In this document: positions 22,979-33,850 of the stretch, piece after piece
Numbering within the stretch: position 1 is the first letter of the stretch
Layout: each line of letters begins with the position of its first letter
NCBI GenBank assembly: GCA_030690265.1
Contig: JAUYHA010000109.1
Coordinates: 368-64,367 of the forward strand
Direction of reading: 5' to 3'
Source: Dehalococcoidales bacterium
GTDB taxonomy: Bacteria; Chloroflexota; Dehalococcoidia; Dehalococcoidales; UBA2162
DNA length: 64,000 bases
The notes under the pieces: generated by a model
The model's database searches: none
What the model saw: the letters and a program-made list of their open reading frames with translations, nothing else
Told to the model about the DNA's origin: nothing
Program-made: the position numbers and the translations under genes

Positions 22979-23131
22979 TCACATTACAGCTATAAGTCCC
23001 AGGATGCCAACGATGATGAGGTAGATGCCAATTATATAGGCAATAATGTGAGGCCAGATTATGGTTATTATCCCTGCGATAATGCTTAATATTGCTACGA
23101 GTATCCCTCCCGATGGCAGCCACATTTCCAT
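22979..23131 (-). CDS. DUF3096-like small membrane protein (50 aa; below the ORF-track cutoff)
   Basis: GGAGGAaccaaaaATG start context. Translation is MEMWLPSGGILVAILSIIAGIITIIWPHIIAYIIGIYLIIVGILGLIAVM. The two-TM pattern resembles DUF3096. Confidence 0.6.
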   Translation of the reverse strand: MEMWLPSGGILVAILSIIAGIITIIWPHIIAYIIGIYLIIVGILGLIAVM

Positions 23132-23522
23132 TTTTGGTTCCTCCGTTTTATCTATTTAAATTATTTCTTTTCGTCTCCTCCTTTCTGTGTACGAGGTTCT
23201 GCGGTCACAGATTGGCAGGTAACAATATTCATTTTTGCGACGCTTCAGGCTCAGGTCAAGCTACTTTTCCCCACTTATCCCACACCAAGCTGGGATACCC
23301 CGGGTATGTGAAACCAAAATCATAAAAAGGGACTATGGTTTTCTAAGTAAATAACTATCAGGGGATTGTTCTTTAATAGGATACTTTGCTCCGAATATAG
23401 ATGATAACCTAGTTTGAAAGTAGACAGGGATTATCCGATAGCAGTGTTCTTGTTTCATAAATCCGGATTAAGGGGGATATCGTTCTAATTTGGTGGAAAT
23501 TAAAAGAACGATGCCGGGCTAA

Positions 23523-24092
23523 ATGAAAGGAACCATACTTATCATAGTAGCAATAGCCATCGCTGGTATTACCAGTCTGGCTGGTAACTACTATCTGAGT
23601 AAAGAGCTAGACTATACTCGCTCTCTGCTGGAGATAGAACGATTTAATACCGGGCAGTTAGCTTCAGACCTCCAGGCACAATCCTTCATTAGTAACACGG
23701 AAATGTTAAGCCAGCCGGCACCTGTCAAGACCGTCTACATAGAGAAGCCTGTAGATAGACCTGTACCCTTTCCTGTCGAGACAATTGTGGAAAAGGATAG
23801 GCTCATTAAAGTATCGGCAGTAGCTACCCGTGGAGAGCTAATCCAGGCTTACGAGACGATAGAGCAGGGTATTTACTCCCACCAGTTCTATCTCGATAAC
23901 CCCGAGCTCCAGAATGAAATATCGGGAGGCACTGAGTATAACCGGCAATGGGTAGAAAACTACCGCTTATTAAGCAGGCTGATTACCAGAGCCTACGGTG
24001 TTTTCCCTGCCTGGAGCTATCTGGCTGACAATACCACAACTATCCTGCCTTACGACTGGGGACTTCCAGAAGATACTGAGATTTCTGAATAA
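23523..24092 (+). CDS. N-terminally membrane-anchored hypothetical protein
   Basis: A single N-terminal TM helix followed by a soluble region. No family recognised. Confidence 0.45.
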   Translation: MKGTILIIVAIAIAGITSLAGNYYLSKELDYTRSLLEIERFNTGQLASDLQAQSFISNTEMLSQPAPVKTVYIEKPVDRPVPFPVETIVEKDRLIKVSAVATRGELIQAYETIEQGIYSHQFYLDNPELQNEISGGTEYNRQWVENYRLLSRLITRAYGVFPAWSYLADNTTTILPYDWGLPEDTEISE

Positions 24093-24102
24093 GGAGGAGG
24101 AA

Positions 24103-24306
24103 ATGATCAGTTTATGGTTGGACGAGAAAGCCAAAGAGATAGCACTTCAGGAGACCGGGTGTCAGCTGAGAGAGCTAAGCCCGCATCTCCAGCTCACATG
24201 CTACATTAAGGCAAGAGAGATGAATCTTGAGTACTGGATGGAACAGGAAGAAAGGGATGAAGTCAGGAGTTACCTGATGATTCCGGCGAAGATAAACAGC
24301 GGATGA
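24103..24306 (+). CDS. Small hypothetical protein (67 aa)
   Basis: ATG at 24103 preceded by AAGGAGGAGGAA. This is the internal start of track ORF 23998..24306. Confidence 0.4.
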   Translation: MISLWLDEKAKEIALQETGCQLRELSPHLQLTCYIKAREMNLEYWMEQEERDEVRSYLMIPAKINSG

Positions 24307-24319
24307 CTCTAGGTGCTCT

Positions 24320-24514
24320 TTACGGCGAGTAAGAGCCTGCCCAGAGTCCGGTAAGGAAATGGCGGGCATTTATGCCGAGCACCCGGGTATCATAACCACC
24401 TTCCTGGACAACCAGCGTGGGAAAATGGAGCGAACCAATCATTTTACCGATGGCTTCGAAGTCCTTAGCCTCCAGGGTCCAGCTGCCAGTCGGGTCTTCT
24501 CTTATTTCTTCGTA
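24320..24514 (-). pseudogene. C-terminal remnant (about 64 codons) of a histone-deacetylase/acetylpolyamine-amidohydrolase-family gene
   Basis: Minus-strand translation is YEEIREDPTGSWTLEAKDFEAIGKMIGSLHFPTLVVQEGGYDTRVLGINARHFLTGLWAGSYSP*. It carries the DP.G...L and EGGY hallmarks of the HDAC-fold C-terminus. There is no start codon or N-terminal catalytic part. It begins directly after the GNAT stop, in the same frame. Confidence 0.5.
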
Positions 24515-24997
24515 TTAGTAGCTCAGCCTTTTCTGCAAAACCAACTTGTCGTCGCCGGCCGAGTAGAAATCGGGGATACGGGCAATCATCTCATAGCCGC
24601 ACCCGAGGTAAAAACGAATGGTCTCCTCATAAGCCGGCGTAGAAGATGTCTCGATAATAACCAGCCTTCCTTTTGCATGCCTGATTTCTTTTTCCGCCGC
24701 TTTAATGAGAGCACTGCCTATGCCGCTCCCCCGTTTTTCCGCTGACACGGCTATCCAGTAAATATCCCAGGTATTTTCCGTCAGCGGTGTTGGCCCATAG
24801 CAAAGGTAGCCCGCAATGGACGAGGCAATCACGGCTACAAAGATATAATATCCTGAACCTTCAGGGTTATCCAGGTAGCTCTCAATGACTTCTTCGGCAA
24901 CTGTTACTTCAGACGGCTTGAATTCGGGTGTATTCCGCAGTAGCTGCATCAAGGCCGGCCTGTCTTCTTTCAGCATTTGGCGGATAGTAATTGTCAT
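24515..24997 (-). CDS. GNAT-family N-acetyltransferase
   Basis: IAVSAEKRGSGIGSALIKAAE is the acetyl-CoA motif A (R/Q-x-x-G-x-G/A). Start at ATG 24997 after AGAGGGA. It overlaps the 3' end of the upstream ligase gene by 89 nt. Confidence 0.8.
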   Translation of the reverse strand: MTITIRQMLKEDRPALMQLLRNTPEFKPSEVTVAEEVIESYLDNPEGSGYYIFVAVIASSIAGYLCYGPTPLTENTWDIYWIAVSAEKRGSGIGSALIKAAEKEIRHAKGRLVIIETSSTPAYEETIRFYLGCGYEMIARIPDFYSAGDDKLVLQKRLSY

Positions 24998-25997
24998 GGT
25001 ATTCCCTCTCGAGTGCCAGTTGCACGATTTTATCAATGAATCGGTTATAGACAATCCCGGCTTCTTTAGCCTGGCGCACCGAGCCAGAGTCAGGAGATAT
25101 ATCCGGGTTGGGATTCACCTCGATAACGTTTAGCTGTCCTTCTTTGTTCATCCGCATGTCTACACGCGCATAGCCCCGATAACCGAGGGCGCGACAGGCG
25201 GCAAGAGCTGTTCCAGTAAGGCATTCCTGCTCGTGTATTTCTGTTTTAGCCGGGCAGGCCACTTTCGTATTCTGAAAATACTGGCTATCCGGCTCCCACT
25301 TGGCGGCAAAGGTGAGAATTCTGGGCATTCCCGGAGGTAATGAGTAGACTATTTCGGATACCGGCAGTACTGTGCAGTGTGAATTACCCAGTACCGTAGC
25401 GTTAAACTCTCGCCCATCAATGAACTCCTCCACCAGAGCGCCACCACCGTAAATTTCATTTATCAGCCTAACCTGTTTTTCCAGTGAGGCGAAATTGCTG
25501 ACCACACTATTAATGGTTAAGCTGTGGCTGGCATCCTCACTCCGGGGCTTGATGATGCACGGATAGCTAAGCCGGAACAGGTGCAGCGTTTCAGCATCGA
25601 GCAGTTGGGAGTCCGGCGTCGGGATGCCGGCAGCTTTCAATATTACCTTGGTTTTTGCCTTGTCCAGAGCCAGGCCTATCATATTTCCCGGACAGCCGGT
25701 ATAGGGTATCCCCGACTCCGATAAAATCTCCGTCACAAGGGCTTCCGTCTCCGGATAGCCACAAAAACCTTCGAAAAGGTTGAACACAACATCCGCATCC
25801 AGAGAGCTCAGGTTCCGTTTCACCTGCTCAAGAGGCGGCGTCAGGGGGAGGCAAATAGCATCATAGCCAAGCTCAAGCAATGCCTGATGGACGGCGGCTA
25901 CTGCCTTAATGACACCCAGTTCCGCCATGGCTTCACCAGCGATGTCGTAGCGGGAATAACATGGCTCATTGTAGATAATGGCTACATGTGTCCGCAC
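24909..25997 (-). CDS. D-Ala-D-Ala-ligase-like ATP-grasp amide ligase (copy 2)
   Basis: Pre-ATP-grasp plus ATP-grasp pattern: PCIIKPRSEDASHSL, LVEEFIDGREF, YARVDMRM...VIEVNPNPD. Confidence 0.8.
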   Translation of the reverse strand: MRTHVAIIYNEPCYSRYDIAGEAMAELGVIKAVAAVHQALLELGYDAICLPLTPPLEQVKRNLSSLDADVVFNLFEGFCGYPETEALVTEILSESGIPYTGCPGNMIGLALDKAKTKVILKAAGIPTPDSQLLDAETLHLFRLSYPCIIKPRSEDASHSLTINSVVSNFASLEKQVRLINEIYGGGALVEEFIDGREFNATVLGNSHCTVLPVSEIVYSLPPGMPRILTFAAKWEPDSQYFQNTKVACPAKTEIHEQECLTGTALAACRALGYRGYARVDMRMNKEGQLNVIEVNPNPDISPDSGSVRQAKEAGIVYNRFIDKIVQLALEREYHDNYYPPNAERRQAGLDAATAEYTRIQAV

Positions 25998-26986
25998 TGC
26001 GGGTACCTCTCAAGGGCAGCATCAAGCACGGCACCTATCAGTTCTTGATGAGTCCAGCCTATCATCTTGGCCATAATAACCATATCGCTATAGCTTCCCA
26101 GTCCGGGTAGCGGGTTCACTTCAAGAAAGTATGGTGTTCCCCCCGGGCTGACTCTGAAGTCCACGCGGGCAAAATCCCGGCACCCCAGAGCCTTAAAAAC
26201 CTTGAGACTGGAATCCGATATCTTATCCAGTATCTTTTGTTCGAGAAGGACGGGGCACTCGTATTCAACCAGATTCAGATAATCGCGTTTTACTTCAAGT
26301 GAATAGACGAAATGCTCATCTTTAGTTTTGGGCAGTATGCGCATCATGCCTAACATCCCGGGTGGTGAGTTACCGATAATGCCTACCGTAACCTCATCGC
26401 CATCAATGAATTCCTCGACCATTACCGGCTGCCGGTAACACTCCAGTATTCTTTGTGCTTTCTCCTGTGCCTGGCTTACGCTGTATGCCAGGGAAGTAAG
26501 ACGAATTCCTTTACTTGAGCCTTCGTAGGCGGGCTTGATAATAGCCGGCAAAGGGAAACCATCCCAGGAAGTCTGATAAAGCTCTTCCTCATCAGCTATC
26601 TTCAGCCACCCGGGGGTGCTGATGCCATCAAGCGCCACCAGCTTTTTAGTTACCGGTTTATCTAGGCATACCGCCAGACATTGCGGGTCTGAACCGGTAT
26701 AGGGTATGCTCAGCATCTCCAGAATAGAGGGCACCTGTGCCTCCCGGCTGCGGTGGTTACCCTTGCCCTCAGCGATGTTAAAGACAATATCTACCTTCTC
26801 CCGCCGGATATTGTCGAGAAACTCTTTGCCCCCGCCTAATTTGACCACCGAGCGTCCTTTCGCCTCCAGAGCCGCCGATATTAGCTCTACTGTCTCCGGG
26901 GAATCATACTCCTCAGAAGCATCGTTGAGGCCATCTTGTTGTGCTGGTGTAGCTTCTTTAAGGTCATAAGACAACCCTATTATCAT
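25982..26986 (-). CDS. D-Ala-D-Ala-ligase-like ATP-grasp amide ligase (copy 1)
   Basis: EEYDSPETVELI..., PAIIKPAYEGSSKGI, MVEEFIDGDEV, FARVDFRV...FLEVNPLPG. ATGA overlap with the KamA stop. Confidence 0.8.
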   Translation of the reverse strand: MIIGLSYDLKEATPAQQDGLNDASEEYDSPETVELISAALEAKGRSVVKLGGGKEFLDNIRREKVDIVFNIAEGKGNHRSREAQVPSILEMLSIPYTGSDPQCLAVCLDKPVTKKLVALDGISTPGWLKIADEEELYQTSWDGFPLPAIIKPAYEGSSKGIRLTSLAYSVSQAQEKAQRILECYRQPVMVEEFIDGDEVTVGIIGNSPPGMLGMMRILPKTKDEHFVYSLEVKRDYLNLVEYECPVLLEQKILDKISDSSLKVFKALGCRDFARVDFRVSPGGTPYFLEVNPLPGLGSYSDMVIMAKMIGWTHQELIGAVLDAALERYPQCGHM

Positions 26987-28314
26987 TTTTTCACTCCTGC
27001 TGGCAAGACCAATTGTCTGCTGTCATACGATGACCTTCGGGAATTAGAGCTTATCCGCCTGCCGTTTCGGTGACCATTGCCAGGCAAATTCGAGCTATCA
27101 GGGTTACGGTAGTTGAACAGGCGGCCTTCATAGTTTCTGAGTATCAGTTCTTCCCTGGTCTGCGAAAGCACATAGTTCGGCTGCAAAGGTACCTTGCCGC
27201 CGCCCCCGGGAAGGTCTACCACATATGTCGGTATTGCCAGACCGGAGGTGAAGCCGCGCATTCCCTCGATTATTTTTACACCGGCTTCTACCGGAGTTCG
27301 GAGGTGCTCGGTTCCCTGCACCTCATCACACTGAAAGAGATAGTAAGGACGCACCTTTATCCTGAGCAAGCTCTGGCACAGCTTTAGCATGGTTTCAACG
27401 CTATCATTGACGCCACGCAATAGCACTGACTGGTTGTTTACCGGGATGCCGCTGCGCAATAGCCGGTCACAGGCTTCCGCTGCCTCCGGAGTTATCTCAT
27501 TGGGATGGTTGAAATGGGTGTTAAGCCATATCGGGCTATATTTTGATAACATGGCACATAACTCATTATCGATGCGCTGGGGTAACACCACGGGAAAGCG
27601 GGTACCGATGCGTATAATCTCTATATGCTTTATTCTTCTGATTTTTGAAATAATGCTTTCCAGACGGTGGGTGGAAAAAGTCAGAGGGTCACCACCGGAG
27701 ATAATGACATCTCTAATATTTTTGTTCTGTTGCAAATACTCCAGCATGGCTTCTATCTCATTGTCGGGGCGCACCCAACCCCCGTGCCGCCATTCCCGCT
27801 TGCGGGTACAGTGACGGCAGAGCATGGCGCAGATATCGGAAAGCACCATCAAGGCTCTATCCGGGTAACGATGGACCAGACCGGGAACGACTGAGTCTTC
27901 TTTCTCCGCCAGGGGGTCCTCAAGACCCATGCAGCTCATGGTTATCTCAAGGACAGAGGGTACTGCCTGTTTTCTTATCGGGTCATCAGGGTCATCAGGG
28001 TTAATTAGAGACAGGTAGTAGGGGGTTATCGACAGAGGGTAGCGCCTGATTACCAGTCTTAGCTGCGCCTTTTCTGTAGCCGAGAGGGGGACGAATTCGT
28101 TTAACCGTTCAATAGTGTTAATTCTATTTCGGAAGTGCCACTTCCAATCATTCCAGTTGCTCTCGGATATATGCCCGAAGAACCTATATCGGTTTGAAGC
28201 TCTACTATCTGGAGGGTCTTCTTCAATATCGCTGCGAGGAGCAGATTTACCGGGGGGTTCTTCCTCCTTTTCACTTGAGGTCTGATTTTCTATTGTGGTG
28301 GTTTGCTTTTCCAT
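26983..28314 (-). CDS. kamA: KamA-family radical-SAM/PLP amino-acid 2,3-aminomutase (lysine 2,3-aminomutase-like)
   Basis: WNDWKWHFRNRI N-terminal signature, CAMLCRHCTRK (CxxxCxxC), IISGGDPL, and size 443 aa. Substrate (Lys vs Glu/Arg) was not determined. Confidence 0.85.
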   Translation of the reverse strand: MEKQTTTIENQTSSEKEEEPPGKSAPRSDIEEDPPDSRASNRYRFFGHISESNWNDWKWHFRNRINTIERLNEFVPLSATEKAQLRLVIRRYPLSITPYYLSLINPDDPDDPIRKQAVPSVLEITMSCMGLEDPLAEKEDSVVPGLVHRYPDRALMVLSDICAMLCRHCTRKREWRHGGWVRPDNEIEAMLEYLQQNKNIRDVIISGGDPLTFSTHRLESIISKIRRIKHIEIIRIGTRFPVVLPQRIDNELCAMLSKYSPIWLNTHFNHPNEITPEAAEACDRLLRSGIPVNNQSVLLRGVNDSVETMLKLCQSLLRIKVRPYYLFQCDEVQGTEHLRTPVEAGVKIIEGMRGFTSGLAIPTYVVDLPGGGGKVPLQPNYVLSQTREELILRNYEGRLFNYRNPDSSNLPGNGHRNGRRISSNSRRSSYDSRQLVLPAGVKK

Positions 28315-28362
28315 TTCATCCTTTCTTTAATGTTATTATCTTTAAATAGTCTGGAAAGTACT

Positions 28363-28689
28363 CTATGTAGCTTTAATTTCGACACGCGGGGTTCGCCGGT
28401 CAGCCACATAAGCATCCCCGGCACTGTCAATATATCCTTCATAGAAGAGCAGTTCGTGATGCTGCTCCAGGTCCTGCCTGCTTCTTATAGAGAGGTCTTT
28501 CTCACGGGCTTTAGCGGGACTAAAAATACTGACTCGTCTCACCTGTTTGTCTTTAACCTGACCATCATATTCAAAACACCTGAGCAGCTCGAGGTACTGA
28601 GGCAACAGGCCGAACCGGCGCCGCATATATTCCTGGATAGGTTTAGGTAGCCGCCTGGCTCCATTTTTGTTTCGCCAGTACAGGTGCAT
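28363..28689 (-). CDS. Hypothetical basic protein (108 aa), first conserved-looking gene upstream of kamA
   Basis: ORF in operon position, 48 nt upstream of kamA. No family recognised. Confidence 0.45.
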   Translation of the reverse strand: MHLYWRNKNGARRLPKPIQEYMRRRFGLLPQYLELLRCFEYDGQVKDKQVRRVSIFSPAKAREKDLSIRSRQDLEQHHELLFYEGYIDSAGDAYVADRRTPRVEIKAT

Positions 28690-28704
28690 CTCAGGTGTTA
28701 CCTT

Positions 28705-28851
28705 TCATTTCATTGTATTGGCTTTGCCAGGATGTGCCCAGTCAGTATGCCTCTTCATTGTAATAAGGTCTCTACAAGTGAAAGGGCATCCTGCAGCAAG
28801 ACACTTCAGTTCGGTAGTAGTCGTGGATTGCTTCTTTTTGAATAAACCCAT
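28705..28851 (-). CDS. 48-aa ORF with classical C2H2 zinc-finger spacing (below the track cutoff)
   Basis: AAGGAGGtaagaaaATG start context. Translation is MGLFKKKQSTTTTELKCLAAGCPFTCRDLITMKRHTDWAHPGKANTMK, giving C-x4-C-x12-H-x4-H. Confidence 0.45.
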   Translation of the reverse strand: MGLFKKKQSTTTTELKCLAAGCPFTCRDLITMKRHTDWAHPGKANTMK

Positions 28852-28888
28852 TTTCTTACCTCCTTATTTACCAGCTATTTGTTCCCGG

Positions 28889-29317
28889 TCAAGCCTCCAT
28901 TCTCTCTTTGATATTGGTCAAGGCAAAGCTTGCCACGCGTTCGTTCCTTCTCAATATGAGCAACTCACTGACTTTCCCTAGCACCGGTATAGGGATGGTA
29001 TAATCTATTACCCATCTTAATTCAGTCCCAACATCCACACGTCTAAATTCCCAAAACCAGCTGGCATTCATACCACCCTTGCTCTCTACACGGCGTTCAC
29101 CATTGATTCTGCTGCGGGTTACCTTTGCTTTCGAAGTAAAGTGTAACCCCATCATTTTGTAGTCAAATGTCCAGCTCTGCAGTTCTCCGTGCCCGGTGAT
29201 ATCCCGAATTGCAGTTACATTTGACCACCATTCCGTCATGTTTTCAGGGTTACTTATGTACTCAAACACTTTTTCTACCGGAACATTAATTGTAATGCTT
29301 TCTGTAATCCTTGGCAT
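28889..29317 (-). CDS. SRPBCC (START/Bet v1/polyketide-cyclase-like) ligand-binding protein
   Basis: ITESITINVPVEKVFEYISNPENMTEWW is a typical SRPBCC N-terminus. ATG at 29317 after GAGGAGGAAAAAGGAA. Confidence 0.7.
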   Translation of the reverse strand: MPRITESITINVPVEKVFEYISNPENMTEWWSNVTAIRDITGHGELQSWTFDYKMMGLHFTSKAKVTRSRINGERRVESKGGMNASWFWEFRRVDVGTELRWVIDYTIPIPVLGKVSELLILRRNERVASFALTNIKERMEA

Positions 29318-29394
29318 TTCCTTTTTCCTCCTCAAGTTCTATCTAAGCCAGGATTAACTCCAATTAATCTCCTTGTGTCCCCATCTCTAATAAC

Positions 29395-29423
29395 TTGACA
29401 AACCTTTTTTATCCCAGTATGAT
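29395..29423 (+). promoter_or_regulatory. Candidate promoter for the wHTH gene (TTGACA-17 nt-TATGAT)
   Basis: TTGACA at 29395-29400 and TATGAT at 29418-29423. Confidence 0.4.
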
Positions 29424-29479
29424 TCTTCAGGATGTTTTATTGTAGACATTATCTTCCAGAATTTTAGTTCTTGTAGAAA

Positions 29480-29507
29480 ATTATACAATGCCATTGGAAT
29501 TTGTCAA
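29480..29507 (-). promoter_or_regulatory. Candidate promoter for the SRPBCC-kamA operon (TTGACA-16 nt-TATAAT on the minus strand)
   Basis: Plus-strand tgtcaa at 29502-29507 and attata at 29480-29485. Both hexamers are consensus. Confidence 0.4.
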
Positions 29508-29548
29508 GAGGTCTTCTTAAAATTCCTCGGGTTTACTGGAGGGTTGCA

Positions 29549-29860
29549 ATGAATGAATGGAAATTCATTACAAATCACGGTTTAGTACTGGCTTCTATTG
29601 CCACAGGGCATGGTAAAACAGCCAGAGACATTGGTGATGAGGTTGGTATAACAGAAAGGACTACCCACAAGATAATAGTTGACCTTGAGAAGGATGGCTA
29701 TATTACAAAAACCAGAGTTGGCAACAGAAATAGATATAGAATCCTTCCAGAAGTACTCATGAAAACAACTGATATCGCGGTCGGTGAGCTTCTGGAACTA
29801 CTCGGCTGGAAAAGGCGAAAAAGGAAAAAGACGGTCGATATCCGCAAAAACGAAGATTAA
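29549..29860 (+). CDS. Winged-helix (MarR/ArsR-like) transcriptional regulator
   Basis: ARDIGDEVGITERTTHKIIVDLEKDGYITKTRVGNRNRYRI. ATG at 29549 after GGAGGG. Basic C-terminal tail. Confidence 0.65.
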   Translation: MNEWKFITNHGLVLASIATGHGKTARDIGDEVGITERTTHKIIVDLEKDGYITKTRVGNRNRYRILPEVLMKTTDIAVGELLELLGWKRRKRKKTVDIRKNED

Positions 29861-29912
29861 AGATGTAGACCCGTCAAGTACTTCGTATCATTAAATAATT
29901 CCCAATTTCCTT

Positions 29913-31292
29913 TCATCTAGGGAGGTTCCTGTCTCCTGTCTTCAAAAGTATGCATTGTTCTGGCCTGACCGGTTTCGCAGCTAATATTTGCTCAGCGATG
30001 TTAAAGTGTCTCCTGGATTGGTTTTTCCAGGAAAACTCTTCGGCAAAATTTAATACTTTCTCTTCTATCATTTCCCCAATCTCTGGATTGCAGATGAGGT
30101 TTTTCACTTTGAGTAACAGACTATCTAAATTTATGTCGGTCAACTCTCCAGCTTCTTTCAGGGTCTCGCCGACGCCTTCCATGTCACGCCCGGCAATTAA
30201 AGCTCCGGTGCCCAGGGCGTGTGACAGGACTCCACTCTGGGTGCACTCACTGGGCCAGTAGAAATTGATATCAAAGGCTCTCTGAGCAAGGGGCAAAATG
30301 TCACCATTTACCCAGGTCTCACAGAGAAATTTATCTTCGCCATTACACATTCTCAGGAGTTTGTCAGCATACTTCTTTTGAGATTTATCCCTGGGTTTAC
30401 CAATCCTTACTGCCACAATTTTTCTGTGAGGAAGGTATCGTTGCAAGCTATCTCTGCTGTGATAAAGAAATTTTGTATCCTTGGAATGGGCCATAAATCC
30501 TGTCTGCCCAAGCACAACAGTATTCGGGTCAGTGAAGACACGCTGCTTATATAAAGCTTTTTTTACCTTCATACTGAGGTCTGATTCATAAAGCAGGTAA
30601 TCGTTTAATTTTTCCTTGGCTTCCTTCCGGCTCAGATGGGTTATCTCGGGATAAGAGTGAATACCGTGCCTTATGAGATGCAGTTTTCCGGAATGCTGGG
30701 GGAAAGCGGCGCTGACTGCATTGTAGACACCCCGGCTGAAAACGGTGATTGCGTCAACATAAGGCAGCAATATTTGCAACATGTAATACTCGTTATTGCG
30801 CAGTCCCATCACGGATTCATCGCTCTGGAAATGAAGGGTGTGAAAACTAACTACCTTCGGTATATTCAGATTTTTCAGCATAGAGATAAACTGAAAGTTT
30901 CTCGGCCAGATACCGAATTCATGCTGGAACCAGAGGACAGCGTTTTCTCTTCTTGAACTCAAAGTGCTAAGCCCTTTTTCAATCGTTGATGAAGTAAAAT
31001 CACGGCGACTTGGTATGCCATACCAGACATTATGTTTTGCTTTTTCTTCGTCTGTCAGGGGGGCCCCATAATTTTCCAGGTTGAAGGATATTACCCCCCA
31101 TCTTGACTCAGGGTTTTTACGGATAATGAAGCTGGTATAATCGGCAATGCCGCACATTATGGGTGGGTATGGTCCGACAAAATATATAGATGCTGCTTTA
31201 TCAACGGGCTTTAGTGTTTCCTGTGAAAACGGGATTAGAAGTGTCTCTTTATAAATATTGGGGTTCGTACCCCCAATTATGCTGCTTGCCAT
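29913..31292 (-). CDS. GT-B-fold (family 4-like) glycosyltransferase
   Basis: YFVGPYPPIMCGIADYTSF N-terminus and a C-terminal E-x7-E-like region. ATG at 31292 after GGAAGGAG. Confidence 0.6.
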   Translation of the reverse strand: MASSIIGGTNPNIYKETLLIPFSQETLKPVDKAASIYFVGPYPPIMCGIADYTSFIIRKNPESRWGVISFNLENYGAPLTDEEKAKHNVWYGIPSRRDFTSSTIEKGLSTLSSRRENAVLWFQHEFGIWPRNFQFISMLKNLNIPKVVSFHTLHFQSDESVMGLRNNEYYMLQILLPYVDAITVFSRGVYNAVSAAFPQHSGKLHLIRHGIHSYPEITHLSRKEAKEKLNDYLLYESDLSMKVKKALYKQRVFTDPNTVVLGQTGFMAHSKDTKFLYHSRDSLQRYLPHRKIVAVRIGKPRDKSQKKYADKLLRMCNGEDKFLCETWVNGDILPLAQRAFDINFYWPSECTQSGVLSHALGTGALIAGRDMEGVGETLKEAGELTDINLDSLLLKVKNLICNPEIGEMIEEKVLNFAEEFSWKNQSRRHFNIAEQILAAKPVRPEQCILLKTGDRNLPR

Positions 31293-32270: not shown

Positions 32271-32552
32271 TCAGCTCCTCACCTGATATGTTTCGCAATC
32301 GGCATGTCGATTGTGACTGGCAACATCTATGTTTGAAGCCCGGCATTCAAGCTGTTCATTAAACTTGCAGTCCGCTGCCAGACAGGCACCCACCCCAGCG
32401 TTAGCTTCCGGGACCCCGCCTTTACCGCTGGCATGGGTATAGGTATTGCATTCCGCGTGTGAGCCTACATTAATGCCTGGGGTATGACAACGGTTGGTCA
32501 TATTGTAGGCACAAGCTGACATGTTGCACTCAAGTATTCGGGTCATATCCAT
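32271..32552 (-). CDS. DUF1540-like Cys-rich protein (93 aa, copy A)
   Basis: ATG at 32552 after GGGAGGTGGAGAA. Two repeats, C-x4-C-x7-C-x12-C then C-x4-C-x7-C-x15-C (CNMSACAYN...C...C). Paralogue at 33572. Confidence 0.7.
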   Translation of the reverse strand: MDMTRILECNMSACAYNMTNRCHTPGINVGSHAECNTYTHASGKGGVPEANAGVGACLAADCKFNEQLECRASNIDVASHNRHADCETYQVRS

Positions 32553-32677
32553 TTCTCCACCTCCCAAAACTTTTTTGTATTCTAGCCAATGAAATGTGGA
32601 AAAGTCATAAAACTGGCGGTTAAAAAATAACAAAAGTATTACATTTGGGGGGGGGTATAAAGAAGCAAGTGAGAGGT

Positions 32678-33430
32678 TTAGATGGGGACCTCTTCGGAGA
32701 CTGGTTCAGAAACTGGCAGGTCTATCATATAGCCAGTTTTGGCTACGGTGCGAATGAAGGCAGGATGACTATCGTTGCGTTCTATTTTATTCCTGAGGCG
32801 GCTGATCCAGGTTCTTAATATCTGCACGTCATTACGGTATTCAGGTCCCCAAATCTTGCTGAGCAGGTCTTCGTATAGCATCAGCTTACCGGCATGCCGG
32901 GTAAGCTCGCTTAGCAAAAGCCATTCAATCCGAGTAAGGGCTATTTCCTCACCGTCCACGATGACCAGATGTTTCTTCCGATTCAGGGTAATAGCTCCCA
33001 GCGTAATGGAGTCAGTAATCTCGCGTTCCTGGGCAGGCATCAGACGCCGTCTTAAGGCTTCGATGCGGGCTATCAGTTCGTCAAGGCTGAAAGGCTTAGC
33101 CAGATAGTCATCAGCGCCCAGTTCCAAGCCTTTTACTTTATCTATGCTGGCTTCCCTGGCGCTGAGAATAATAATCGGTAATGAAAAGTGAGTTCGCACC
33201 TGCTTAAGGGTTTCAAAGCCGTCCATCCCGGGCATAATCACATCGAGGACAAGCAAGTCTGGCTCCTGCGATTGCACTATCTCCAGGGCTTCCCACCCAT
33301 TATAAGCCGTTAGTACCTCATACCCTGATGCCTTGAGTTTTAGCTCGAGGAACTTGACTATGCGCGGCTCATCATCAGTTATCAGTACTCGGTATTGCTT
33401 CACTATCCTGCCTTTCGACCGCAAAGTCAC
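32678..33430 (-). CDS. OmpR/PhoB-family response regulator
   Basis: Receiver (VLITDDEP...LLVLDVIMPGMDG...KP) plus a winged-helix trans_reg_C domain (LTRIEWLLL...RTVAKTGY). Confidence 0.9.
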   Translation of the reverse strand: MTLRSKGRIVKQYRVLITDDEPRIVKFLELKLKASGYEVLTAYNGWEALEIVQSQEPDLLVLDVIMPGMDGFETLKQVRTHFSLPIIILSAREASIDKVKGLELGADDYLAKPFSLDELIARIEALRRRLMPAQEREITDSITLGAITLNRKKHLVIVDGEEIALTRIEWLLLSELTRHAGKLMLYEDLLSKIWGPEYRNDVQILRTWISRLRNKIERNDSHPAFIRTVAKTGYMIDLPVSEPVSEEVPI

Positions 33431-33571: not shown

Positions 33572-33850
33572 ATGCAAATGGTTCAGATTAGCAGATGTAA
33601 TATGAAAACTTGTGCCTACAATATGGATGGGCTGTGCCACACTCTGGCGATAACGGTAGGGCCCCATGCCGAGTGTAACACATATGTTCACGCCAGCAAT
33701 AAAGGCGGCTTCGGCCATGTTACAGCAGGGATAGGTGCCTGTCTGGCAGCGGACTGTAAGTTCAACGATAGGCTGGAGTGCCAGGCATCGAGGATAGATG
33801 TGGTCGGTCACGGTAAACACGCCGATTGCGAAACATTTCAAGAAAGATAG
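33572..33850 (+). CDS. DUF1540-like Cys-rich protein (92 aa, copy B)
   Basis: GAGGAGG Shine-Dalgarno site. 60 of 92 aligned residues are identical to copy A by hand alignment, and all 8 Cys are conserved. Confidence 0.7.
   Translation: MQMVQISRCNMKTCAYNMDGLCHTLAITVGPHAECNTYVHASNKGGFGHVTAGIGACLAADCKFNDRLECQASRIDVVGHGKHADCETFQER

Follow-up and report, generated by a model that had tools for sequence, protein, structure and literature searches.

N-acetylglutaminylglutamine amide (NAGGN), an N-acetylated dipeptide solute, is made by Ngg, a bifunctional enzyme combining a GNAT and an ATP-grasp part, together with AsnO, and synthesis of N-acetylaspartylglutamate (NAAG) in mammals depends on NAT8L and RIMKLA/B. 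In the case of microviridins, which belong to graspetides, the ATP-grasp enzymes MdnB and MdnC and the GNAT MdnD are encoded in one operon, and these RimK-like ligases act on a ribosomal precursor. Another acetylated product, N-epsilon-acetyl-beta-lysine, is formed by AblA and AblB (PMC3543383). Here we analysed a 64-kb stretch of DNA from a Dehalococcoidales bacterium (the window), whose minus strand carries, at 24515-29335, a cassette in which the gene of a KamA-type lysine 2,3-aminomutase is joined by genes of two ATP-grasp ligases and a GNAT. In our opinion, with a probability of about 0.6, this cassette would serve to synthesise a small peptide or amide that contains beta-lysine and is acetylated.

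The four enzyme genes follow one another as KamA (443 aa, radical S-adenosylmethionine (SAM) and pyridoxal phosphate (PLP)-dependent lysine 2,3-aminomutase family; 26983-28314), ligase 1 (334 aa; 25982-26986), ligase 2 (362 aa, with a GTG start codon; 24909-25997) and GNAT (160 aa; 24515-24997, with an alternative TTG start at 25054 which would give a longer form). Their products match the Pfam models Radical_SAM and LAM_C, Dala_Dala_lig_C (both ligases) and Acetyltransf_1, respectively. The TGA stop codon of KamA overlaps the ATG of ligase 1 within a 4-nt ATGA (26983-26986), the two ligase genes share 16 nt (25982-25997, GTGCGGACACATGTAG), and the GNAT start (24997) lies inside the 3' end of the ligase 2 gene, which results in an overlap of 89 nt. 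An earlier description, made from the letters alone (the sequence-only reading), had listed seven minus-strand open reading frames (ORFs), and all of them are present where it placed them. The first two overlaps that it reported were seen in the DNA, the third being added here, and the motifs that it named can be read in the proteins: CAMLCRHC and WNDWKWHFRNRI in KamA, EEFIDG and EVNP.P in both ligases.

Close relatives of ligase 1 number in the thousands in metagenomes, and at least 589 relatives were confirmed in species-representative genomes. The best 80 of these define the set of related loci considered here; almost all of them come from metagenome-assembled genomes (MAGs) of Dehalococcoidia/Dehalococcoidales, and a few from Syntrophales or 'delta-proteobacterial' bins. 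At the level of ORFs, the order KamA-ligase 1-ligase 2-GNAT on one strand was found in 63 of 77 loci, and nearly all exceptions are contigs that end within the cassette. Recurrence of the same order in so many related loci indicates that the arrangement goes beyond chance. In a complete Dehalococcoidales MAG chromosome (L065, CP070645.1), KamA and ligase 1 are intact, ligase 2 is represented by a short fragment and GNAT was not found, so the cassette looks decayed there.

Association of these genes is retained when their order is changed. A Syntrophales genome bears them as ligase 1-ligase 2-GNAT-KamA, with a distinct and shorter KamA subtype, and in metagenome relatives at 33-51% identity KamA, both ligases and GNAT occur together again, in several orders. 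Minimal distant loci consist of KamA and a ligase-1-type gene only, and one locus of KamA, ligase 1 and a deacetylase. When the sequence of PDB 2R7H, the nearest solved relative of the GNAT, was used as a query, cultured Desulfovibrionaceae were retrieved. In Desulfovibrio mangrovi (L166, CP104208.1, 3553749-3570258) a gene of a sigma-54 activator is followed, in this order, by those of KamA, two ligases, GNAT and a GNAT-like/deacetylase fusion, and the gene for a protein 99% identical to 2R7H has the same arrangement of sigma-54 activator, KamA, ligase, ligase and GNAT. None of the Desulfovibrio cassette proteins reaches an NCBIfam equivalog cut-off. Synteny, an association resistant to rearrangement and gene fusion, all seen across phyla, indicate that the cassette is old and its genes functionally linked, and that it spans at least Chloroflexota and Desulfobacterota. 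The conservation of the neighbourhood, on which the sequence-only reading had made its proposal depend, is thereby borne out, both in the related loci and across phyla.

KamA aligns end to end with lysine 2,3-aminomutase (LAM) of Clostridium subterminale (PDB 2A5H; 476 bits, E 7.7e-142). Its CAMLCRHC motif occupies residues 162-169, and C162, C166 and C169, as well as the PLP lysine K374 (K337 of LAM), are invariant across 68 orthologues. In LAM, D293 and D330 bind the epsilon-ammonium group of lysine, and both are replaced in glutamate 2,3-aminomutase. The corresponding residues of KamA, D330 (FQCDEV) and D367 (YVVDLPGGGG), which had been singled out for inspection before, are kept in all 68 orthologues, and the cluster cysteines, the PLP lysine and both aspartates are found also in the divergent Syntrophales KamA. 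As all these residues are preserved, beta-lysine is the likely product of this enzyme. Comparison with family models gives a mixed picture: KamA exceeds the cut-off of the subfamily model TIGR00238 (338.5 vs 199.2), its top model match is the AblA equivalog, with a score just under the cut-off (503.6 vs 525.4), and it stays far below the NCBIfam cut-offs for glutamate and arginine aminomutases.

The two ligases are paralogues with 32% mutual identity, in which the motifs mentioned above read VEEFIDGDE and LEVNPLPG (ligase 1) or VEEFIDGRE and IEVNPNPD (ligase 2). Their best Pfam and NCBIfam matches are Ddl/Van, and their public annotation is D-alanine-D-alanine ligase. The scores remain well under the Ddl cut-offs: 180.0 and 140.5 bits for ligases 1 and 2 with NF002378 (cut-off 243), and 155 and 108.5 bits with TIGR01205 (cut-off 245.65). 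The AlphaFold2 model of ligase 1 had a predicted local distance difference test (pLDDT) value of 95.9 with a deep alignment vs 62 with a shallow one, and all top Foldseek matches of the model are Ddl structures, with TM-scores of 0.75-0.80 and 20-26% identity. Alignment with E. coli DdlB demonstrated that both ligases keep the equivalents of the ATP- and Mg-binding residues K97, K144, E180, E187, K215, R255, D257, E270 and N272. The D-Ala pocket of DdlB is formed by the E15-S150-Y216 triad together with S281 and L282. In ligase 1 the second-substrate pocket carries R234 in place of Y216 and D301 in place of L282, while in ligase 2 it carries W234 (Y216), A156 (S150), D299 (G276) and G305 (L282), and all these replacements are family-invariant. 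No mur or fts genes are adjacent in the related loci, where the neighbours are KamA, GNAT, a regulator, MarC and a deacetylase. The scores below the cut-offs, the rebuilt D-Ala pocket and the KamA/GNAT context together argue against genuine Ddl identity, which had been named as the finding that would defeat the sequence-only reading and which we reject. Judged from their residues, both proteins look like active amide ligases from the Ddl branch, different from D-Ala-D-Ala ligases.

Ligase 1 is likely to act directly on beta-lysine, because it is the sole ligase in the loci composed of KamA and ligase 1 only, and because a pocket with Arg and Asp suits a charged substrate. As for ligase 2, natural fusions of a ligase-2-type protein with GNAT in one polypeptide were found in two loci (L155:9006-10541 and L135:9027-10700). 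A separate observation concerns a common sister family of fused double ATP-grasp proteins of about 650-720 aa, composed of two ligase-1-like modules and present on metagenome contigs (L086-L134). In 23 loci their neighbour is Peptidase_S58 (DmpA/beta-aminopeptidase family), and these loci may represent another beta- or D-amino-acid peptide system. Since KamA is usually absent from them and the neighbour is usually the peptidase, we set these fusions aside as a clue to the product.

The GNAT has one strong solved relative, the already mentioned 2R7H (E 5.5e-33, an orthologue-level match). Its best NCBIfam match is RimI (36 bits vs a cut-off of 86), and the AblB model gave no match at E<=0.01. 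A GNAT of the AblB/YodP type can be ruled out on these grounds; of the 'abl-like pair' described previously, the pathway logic of KamA plus GNAT stands, and the likeness of the GNAT itself does not. Directly after the GNAT stop codon, at 24320-24502 of the minus strand, tblastn detected the last ~59 codons of another gene, with 71% identity to residues 520-578 of L055:8745-10484. The full gene encodes a GNAT-like domain fused to a PF00850 deacetylase (579 aa in L055, 585 aa in D. mangrovi, L166:8629-10386), and its remaining ~520 codons have been deleted in this genome. The GNAT-like domain of the fusion shows no detectable homology to the GNAT of the cassette; the deacetylase half of the fusion is closest to acetylpolyamine amidohydrolases (APAH; E 1.5e-71), enzymes acting on small N-acetylated amines. 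In D. mangrovi, as in 25 of the related loci, the fusion gene lies downstream of GNAT; the same region encodes the membrane protein MarC in 27 loci, though not in the window, and the transporter CitMHS in 8.

Control of the cassette seems to differ between lineages. In the window, a winged-helix regulator gene (MarR_2/HTH_24 in Pfam; plus strand, 29501-29860) is divergent from the operon, its true start being probably the ATG at 29549 (MNEWKFITNHG...), and in 52 related loci an orthologue with ~50% identity is transcribed divergently from KamA. A sigma-54-dependent activator takes the place of this MarR-like protein in the Desulfovibrionaceae loci L166, L167 and L168, and a PAS histidine kinase and a sigma-54 response regulator are encoded between ligase 1 and KamA in four distant loci (L151, L152, L160 and L163). 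The enzymes of the gene set were recognized correctly from the sequence alone; the conserved partners overlooked were the divergent helix-turn-helix regulator, MarC and the APAH-type deacetylase.

On the basis of these data, the following pathway may be proposed. KamA would turn L-lysine into beta-lysine, a step strongly supported by the residues of the enzyme. Ligase 1 would then activate a carboxylate as an acyl phosphate and form the first amide bond involving beta-lysine, and ligase 2 and GNAT would add a second residue, an N-acetyl cap, or both; we assign these two proteins to a joint step because their natural fusions exist. The acetyl group would most likely be placed on the aminoalkyl (epsilon) amine, since the deacetylase associated with the cassette belongs to the acetylpolyamine type. 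In the loci that have them, this deacetylase and MarC could be responsible for turnover and transport of the product, and expression would be controlled by the divergent MarR-like regulator here and by the sigma-54 activator in Desulfovibrio. The best reading of the product would be an N-acetylated beta-lysine di- or tripeptide. By analogy with N-epsilon-acetyl-beta-lysine and NAGGN, its most probable function would be that of a compatible or protective solute (osmolyte) in the cytoplasm, to which we would attribute perhaps half of the probability given to the biosynthetic reading as a whole.

Several points weigh against this proposal. The GNAT, by its sequence, does not resemble AblB. Peat, fen, aquifer and lake samples are the source of many cassette carriers, so protection against salt is not obviously needed, although a solute role may hold nevertheless. 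The regulators, whether MarR-like or sigma-54 enhancer-binding proteins, give no hint of the signal, and no transporter is conserved in all related loci. Mapping of the N-terminal domain of the ligases (equivalents of E15, H63 and E68) comes from a weak alignment, in which the E15 equivalent is uncertain. Finally, a conserved motif in the N-terminal tail of KamA, discussed below, is left unexplained by a model of peptide biosynthesis.

One may also consider that the product is a secreted bioactive beta-lysine peptide, similar to streptothricin, with GNAT providing self-protection or a pro-drug form, the deacetylase activating or recycling the compound, and MarC exporting it. Beta-lysine oligopeptide antibiotics do exist, an acetyltransferase/deacetylase pair and a membrane protein adjoin the ligases in about a third of the loci, and the GNAT of the window matches the streptothricin acetyltransferases Sat3/Sat4, if weakly and far below the cut-off (E 0.002-0.007). 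On the other hand, the synteny is stable and apparently vertical across hundreds of Dehalococcoidia species with small genomes, whereas antibiotic clusters are patchy. Moreover, MarC and the deacetylase are optional, the latter being deleted in the window, and the related loci lack a conserved gene for a dedicated export pump or a resistance target. We find this possibility unlikely, though worth keeping in mind.

Another possibility starts from the KamA tail. Cassette KamAs have an N-terminal extension of 40-90 aa (~38 aa in the window) without a counterpart in solved LAM, and this extension is poorly conserved (column majority of 0.50 vs 0.79 in the KamA core) except for copies of a motif, E-E-E-P-P-[G/S]. 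There are 1-3 copies per tail, and at least one copy is present in 67 of 68 orthologues; besides the window, such tails were noted in L001-L084, L141, L142, L157, L158, L164, L166 and L167. KamA of the window bears EEEPPGK (residues 17-23; 28246-28266, minus strand) and a degenerate EEDPPD (residues 31-36; 28207-28224, minus strand). Altogether 115 copies were counted, against 0.16 expected in shuffled tails, a comparison to which no probability can be attached as the sequences are related. The motif occurs once in a six-frame reading of the window and, among ORFs of the loci, almost only in KamA. It recurs in KamAs of just 44-51% identity, and in Desulfovibrio it takes the form of MEPPSL or AEPPSL, that is, a minimal E-P-P-G/S. 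Because its codons vary synonymously at third positions, the constraint acts at the protein level. PPG is the classic ribosome-stalling motif dependent on elongation factor P (EF-P), and the tail might serve translational feedback or docking to the ligases. It is conceivable, then, that the cassette makes a hitherto unrecognised class of acetylated beta-lysine peptides that is widespread in anaerobes and regulates its own synthesis by stalling repeats at the start of KamA: the polycationic product would modulate EF-P-assisted translation of the first pathway enzyme, in a manner likened to polyamine sensing by the PPW element in the mRNA of the eukaryotic antizyme inhibitor. Alternatively, the tail would be an acidic docking or acceptor site for the ATP-grasp ligases. 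We regard this extended scenario as speculative and rather improbable.

The same motif, Glu-rich, conserved in a disordered tail and essentially unique within the loci, could be invoked in favour of protein modification. The ligases would then couple beta-lysine, or residues of another kind, to an acidic segment, perhaps the KamA EEEPPG tail itself, or to a translation factor, following the logic of RimK/TTLL/LysW or of EF-P beta-lysylation, and GNAT and the deacetylase would act on the modified protein. The KamA paralogue EpmB indeed supplies EF-P modification, and two ATP-grasp enzymes are combined with GNAT also in microviridin clusters, which produce peptides made by the ribosome and modified after translation (RiPPs). 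However, both sequence and fold place the ligases in the Ddl branch, which acts on small molecules, outside the RimK/LysX branch, and the loci share no conserved gene for a precursor or carrier, the gap between regulator and KamA being only ~200-400 bp in most of them; a RiPP/graspetide system can be ruled out on these two grounds. KamA scores 246.3 with the EpmB model TIGR03821, against a cut-off of 369.3, and no gene of the LysRS-like EpmA is present in or near the cassette, where the ATP-grasp ligases stand in its place. The deacetylase is of the acetylpolyamine type, and the short KamA subtype is devoid of the tail motif, yet it is still accompanied by ligases and GNAT. Protein modification thus seems doubtful to us.

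Far less credible is a role in the cell envelope, in which the ligases would make D-Ala-D-Ala or a related wall dipeptide and merely adjoin an abl-like osmolyte pair. The Ddl/Van matches and the public label would agree with it, but scores far under the cut-offs, family-invariant alterations of the E15-S150-Y216 triad and L282, the low identity to solved Ddls, the lack of mur/fts neighbours and the tight linkage to KamA and GNAT across phyla, gene fusions included, speak against it. The least plausible explanation is catabolism, in which KamA would catalyse the entry step of lysine fermentation or of the breakdown of beta-lysine, with intermediates salvaged by the remaining enzymes: clostridial lysine fermentation does begin with KamA, and B. 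subtilis kamA is grouped with an acetyltransferase and a deacetylase, but genes of beta-lysine 5,6-aminomutase, the dehydrogenase, the cleavage enzyme and CoA-transferase are not conserved nearby, so that lysine fermentation is ruled out, and ATP-consuming amide ligases are anabolic. More generally, the surroundings of the cassette in the related loci show no conserved genes of lysine fermentation, of the mur type or for precursor peptides.

In the genome studied here, the operon starts with three further minus-strand genes. The first encodes an SRPBCC protein (Polyketide_cyc2 in Pfam; 28889-29317, or to 29335), whose homologue is missing from all 80 related loci. It is followed by orf48, a 48-aa ORF with Cys and His residues (28705-28851), whose homologue occurs only in L055, and by orf108 (108 aa; 28363-28689), located between the regulator and KamA and having homologues in six loci (L046, L048, L050, L055, L062 and L063); neither has a Pfam or NCBIfam match. 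As they are not conserved, these three genes are rejected as parts of the pathway and are regarded as local passengers outside the conserved system. Their earlier placing in the operon holds insofar as they are arranged head to tail and co-transcribed here, not as far as conserved parts are concerned.

A consensus scan revealed a candidate sigma-70-like promoter of the operon, TTGACA-16-TATAAT (29480-29507, minus strand), which matches at 12 of 12 positions and is situated 163 nt upstream from the start of SRPBCC. An 11/12 candidate for the regulator (29395-29423, plus strand) is placed back to back with it; both are consensus matches only. A scan of 23000-31000 with Rfam at E<=1 returned no RNA family, by which a riboswitch or RNA leader was ruled out. 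The GC content of 24001-28000 is 0.51, as compared to 0.43 in the immediate flanks, while some other parts of the window reach 0.50-0.55. Apart from the cassette, two paralogous Cys/His-rich ORFs (32271-32633, minus strand, and 33572-33850, plus strand) flank a response-regulator gene (32678-33430). They share the pattern …CAYNM…C…HAECNTY.HAS.KGG…GACLAADCKFN..LEC.AS.IDV..H..HADCET.Q and presumably resemble DUF1540.

The cassette or its product was not found described in full-text literature searches, which covered among others papers on negamycin, the Pelobacter genome and sigma-54 regulons and did not extend to the 2009 survey of ATP-grasp amidoligases by Iyer et al. The same searches yielded no paper discussing 2R7H in the context of such a cassette, and NCBIfam, as a curated family library, contains no cassette-specific model and assigns no product. 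The opinion that this gene set has no characterised pathway is upheld by both sources. The building blocks and the logic of the system are already known; the combination and the product are not.

Aquifers, sediments and peat are rich in Dehalococcoidia, hardly any of which have been brought into culture. The conservation of a pathway, evidently under selection, in which ATP, acetyl-CoA and a radical-SAM enzyme are devoted to lysine suggests that these bacteria contain a major metabolite so far unrecognised; a solute, a nitrogen store and a signal are all conceivable. Since the cassette is present in cultured Desulfovibrio and includes a protein of known crystal structure (2R7H), the question is directly testable in the laboratory. 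Identification of the product would open a new branch of beta-amino-acid and ATP-grasp (L-amino-acid-ligase-like) biochemistry and correct hundreds of 'D-alanine-D-alanine ligase' annotations, some of whose carriers may lack peptidoglycan. It could also yield ligases useful in making beta-peptides.

When the cassette is compared with the systems introduced at the beginning, its relation to AblA/AblB and KamA/YodP is apparent: in each case a lysine-type KamA is encoded in the same operon as a GNAT, and AblA is the model that KamA of the window matches best. Nevertheless, the two-gene unit is absent here, as two ATP-grasp ligases lie between or beside KamA and GNAT, the latter is short (160 aa) and of the 2R7H type rather than like AblB, and the cassette adds the APAH-type deacetylase, MarC, a regulator and the E-P-P-G/S tail of KamA. 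The structure 2R7H itself was described by structural genomics as a 'putative D-alanine N-acetyltransferase of GNAT family', and its gene is located in a KamA-ligase-ligase-GNAT cassette, under a sigma-54 activator, unlike that of the window with its MarR-like regulator. A KamA-family enzyme which supplies beta-lysine for an amide bond is reminiscent of EpmB/EpmA, and PPG in the KamA tail is of the EF-P-dependent type.

With DdlA/B and VanA the ligases share the fold (TM 0.75-0.80), and the catalytic residues for ATP/Mg are identical; they differ in the replaced pocket positions Y216 and L282, as well as S150 and G276 in ligase 2, and in the KamA/GNAT context. Microviridin clusters similarly bring together two ATP-grasp ligases and a GNAT in one operon, but the cassette has ligases of the Ddl branch, lacks a conserved precursor gene and includes a lysine aminomutase. 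The proposed chemistry would combine the logic of AblA/AblB with that of NAGGN and NAAG, in which N-acetylation from acetyl-CoA and an ATP-grasp peptide bond lead to a small N-acetylated di- or tripeptide solute, and the ligase 2-GNAT fusions are reminiscent, in layout, of the bifunctional NAGGN synthetase. In contrast to the NAGGN pathway, the amidotransferase AsnO is absent, the ligases belong to the Ddl branch instead of being RimK/cyanophycin-like, and the building block would be beta-lysine delivered by a radical-SAM mutase.

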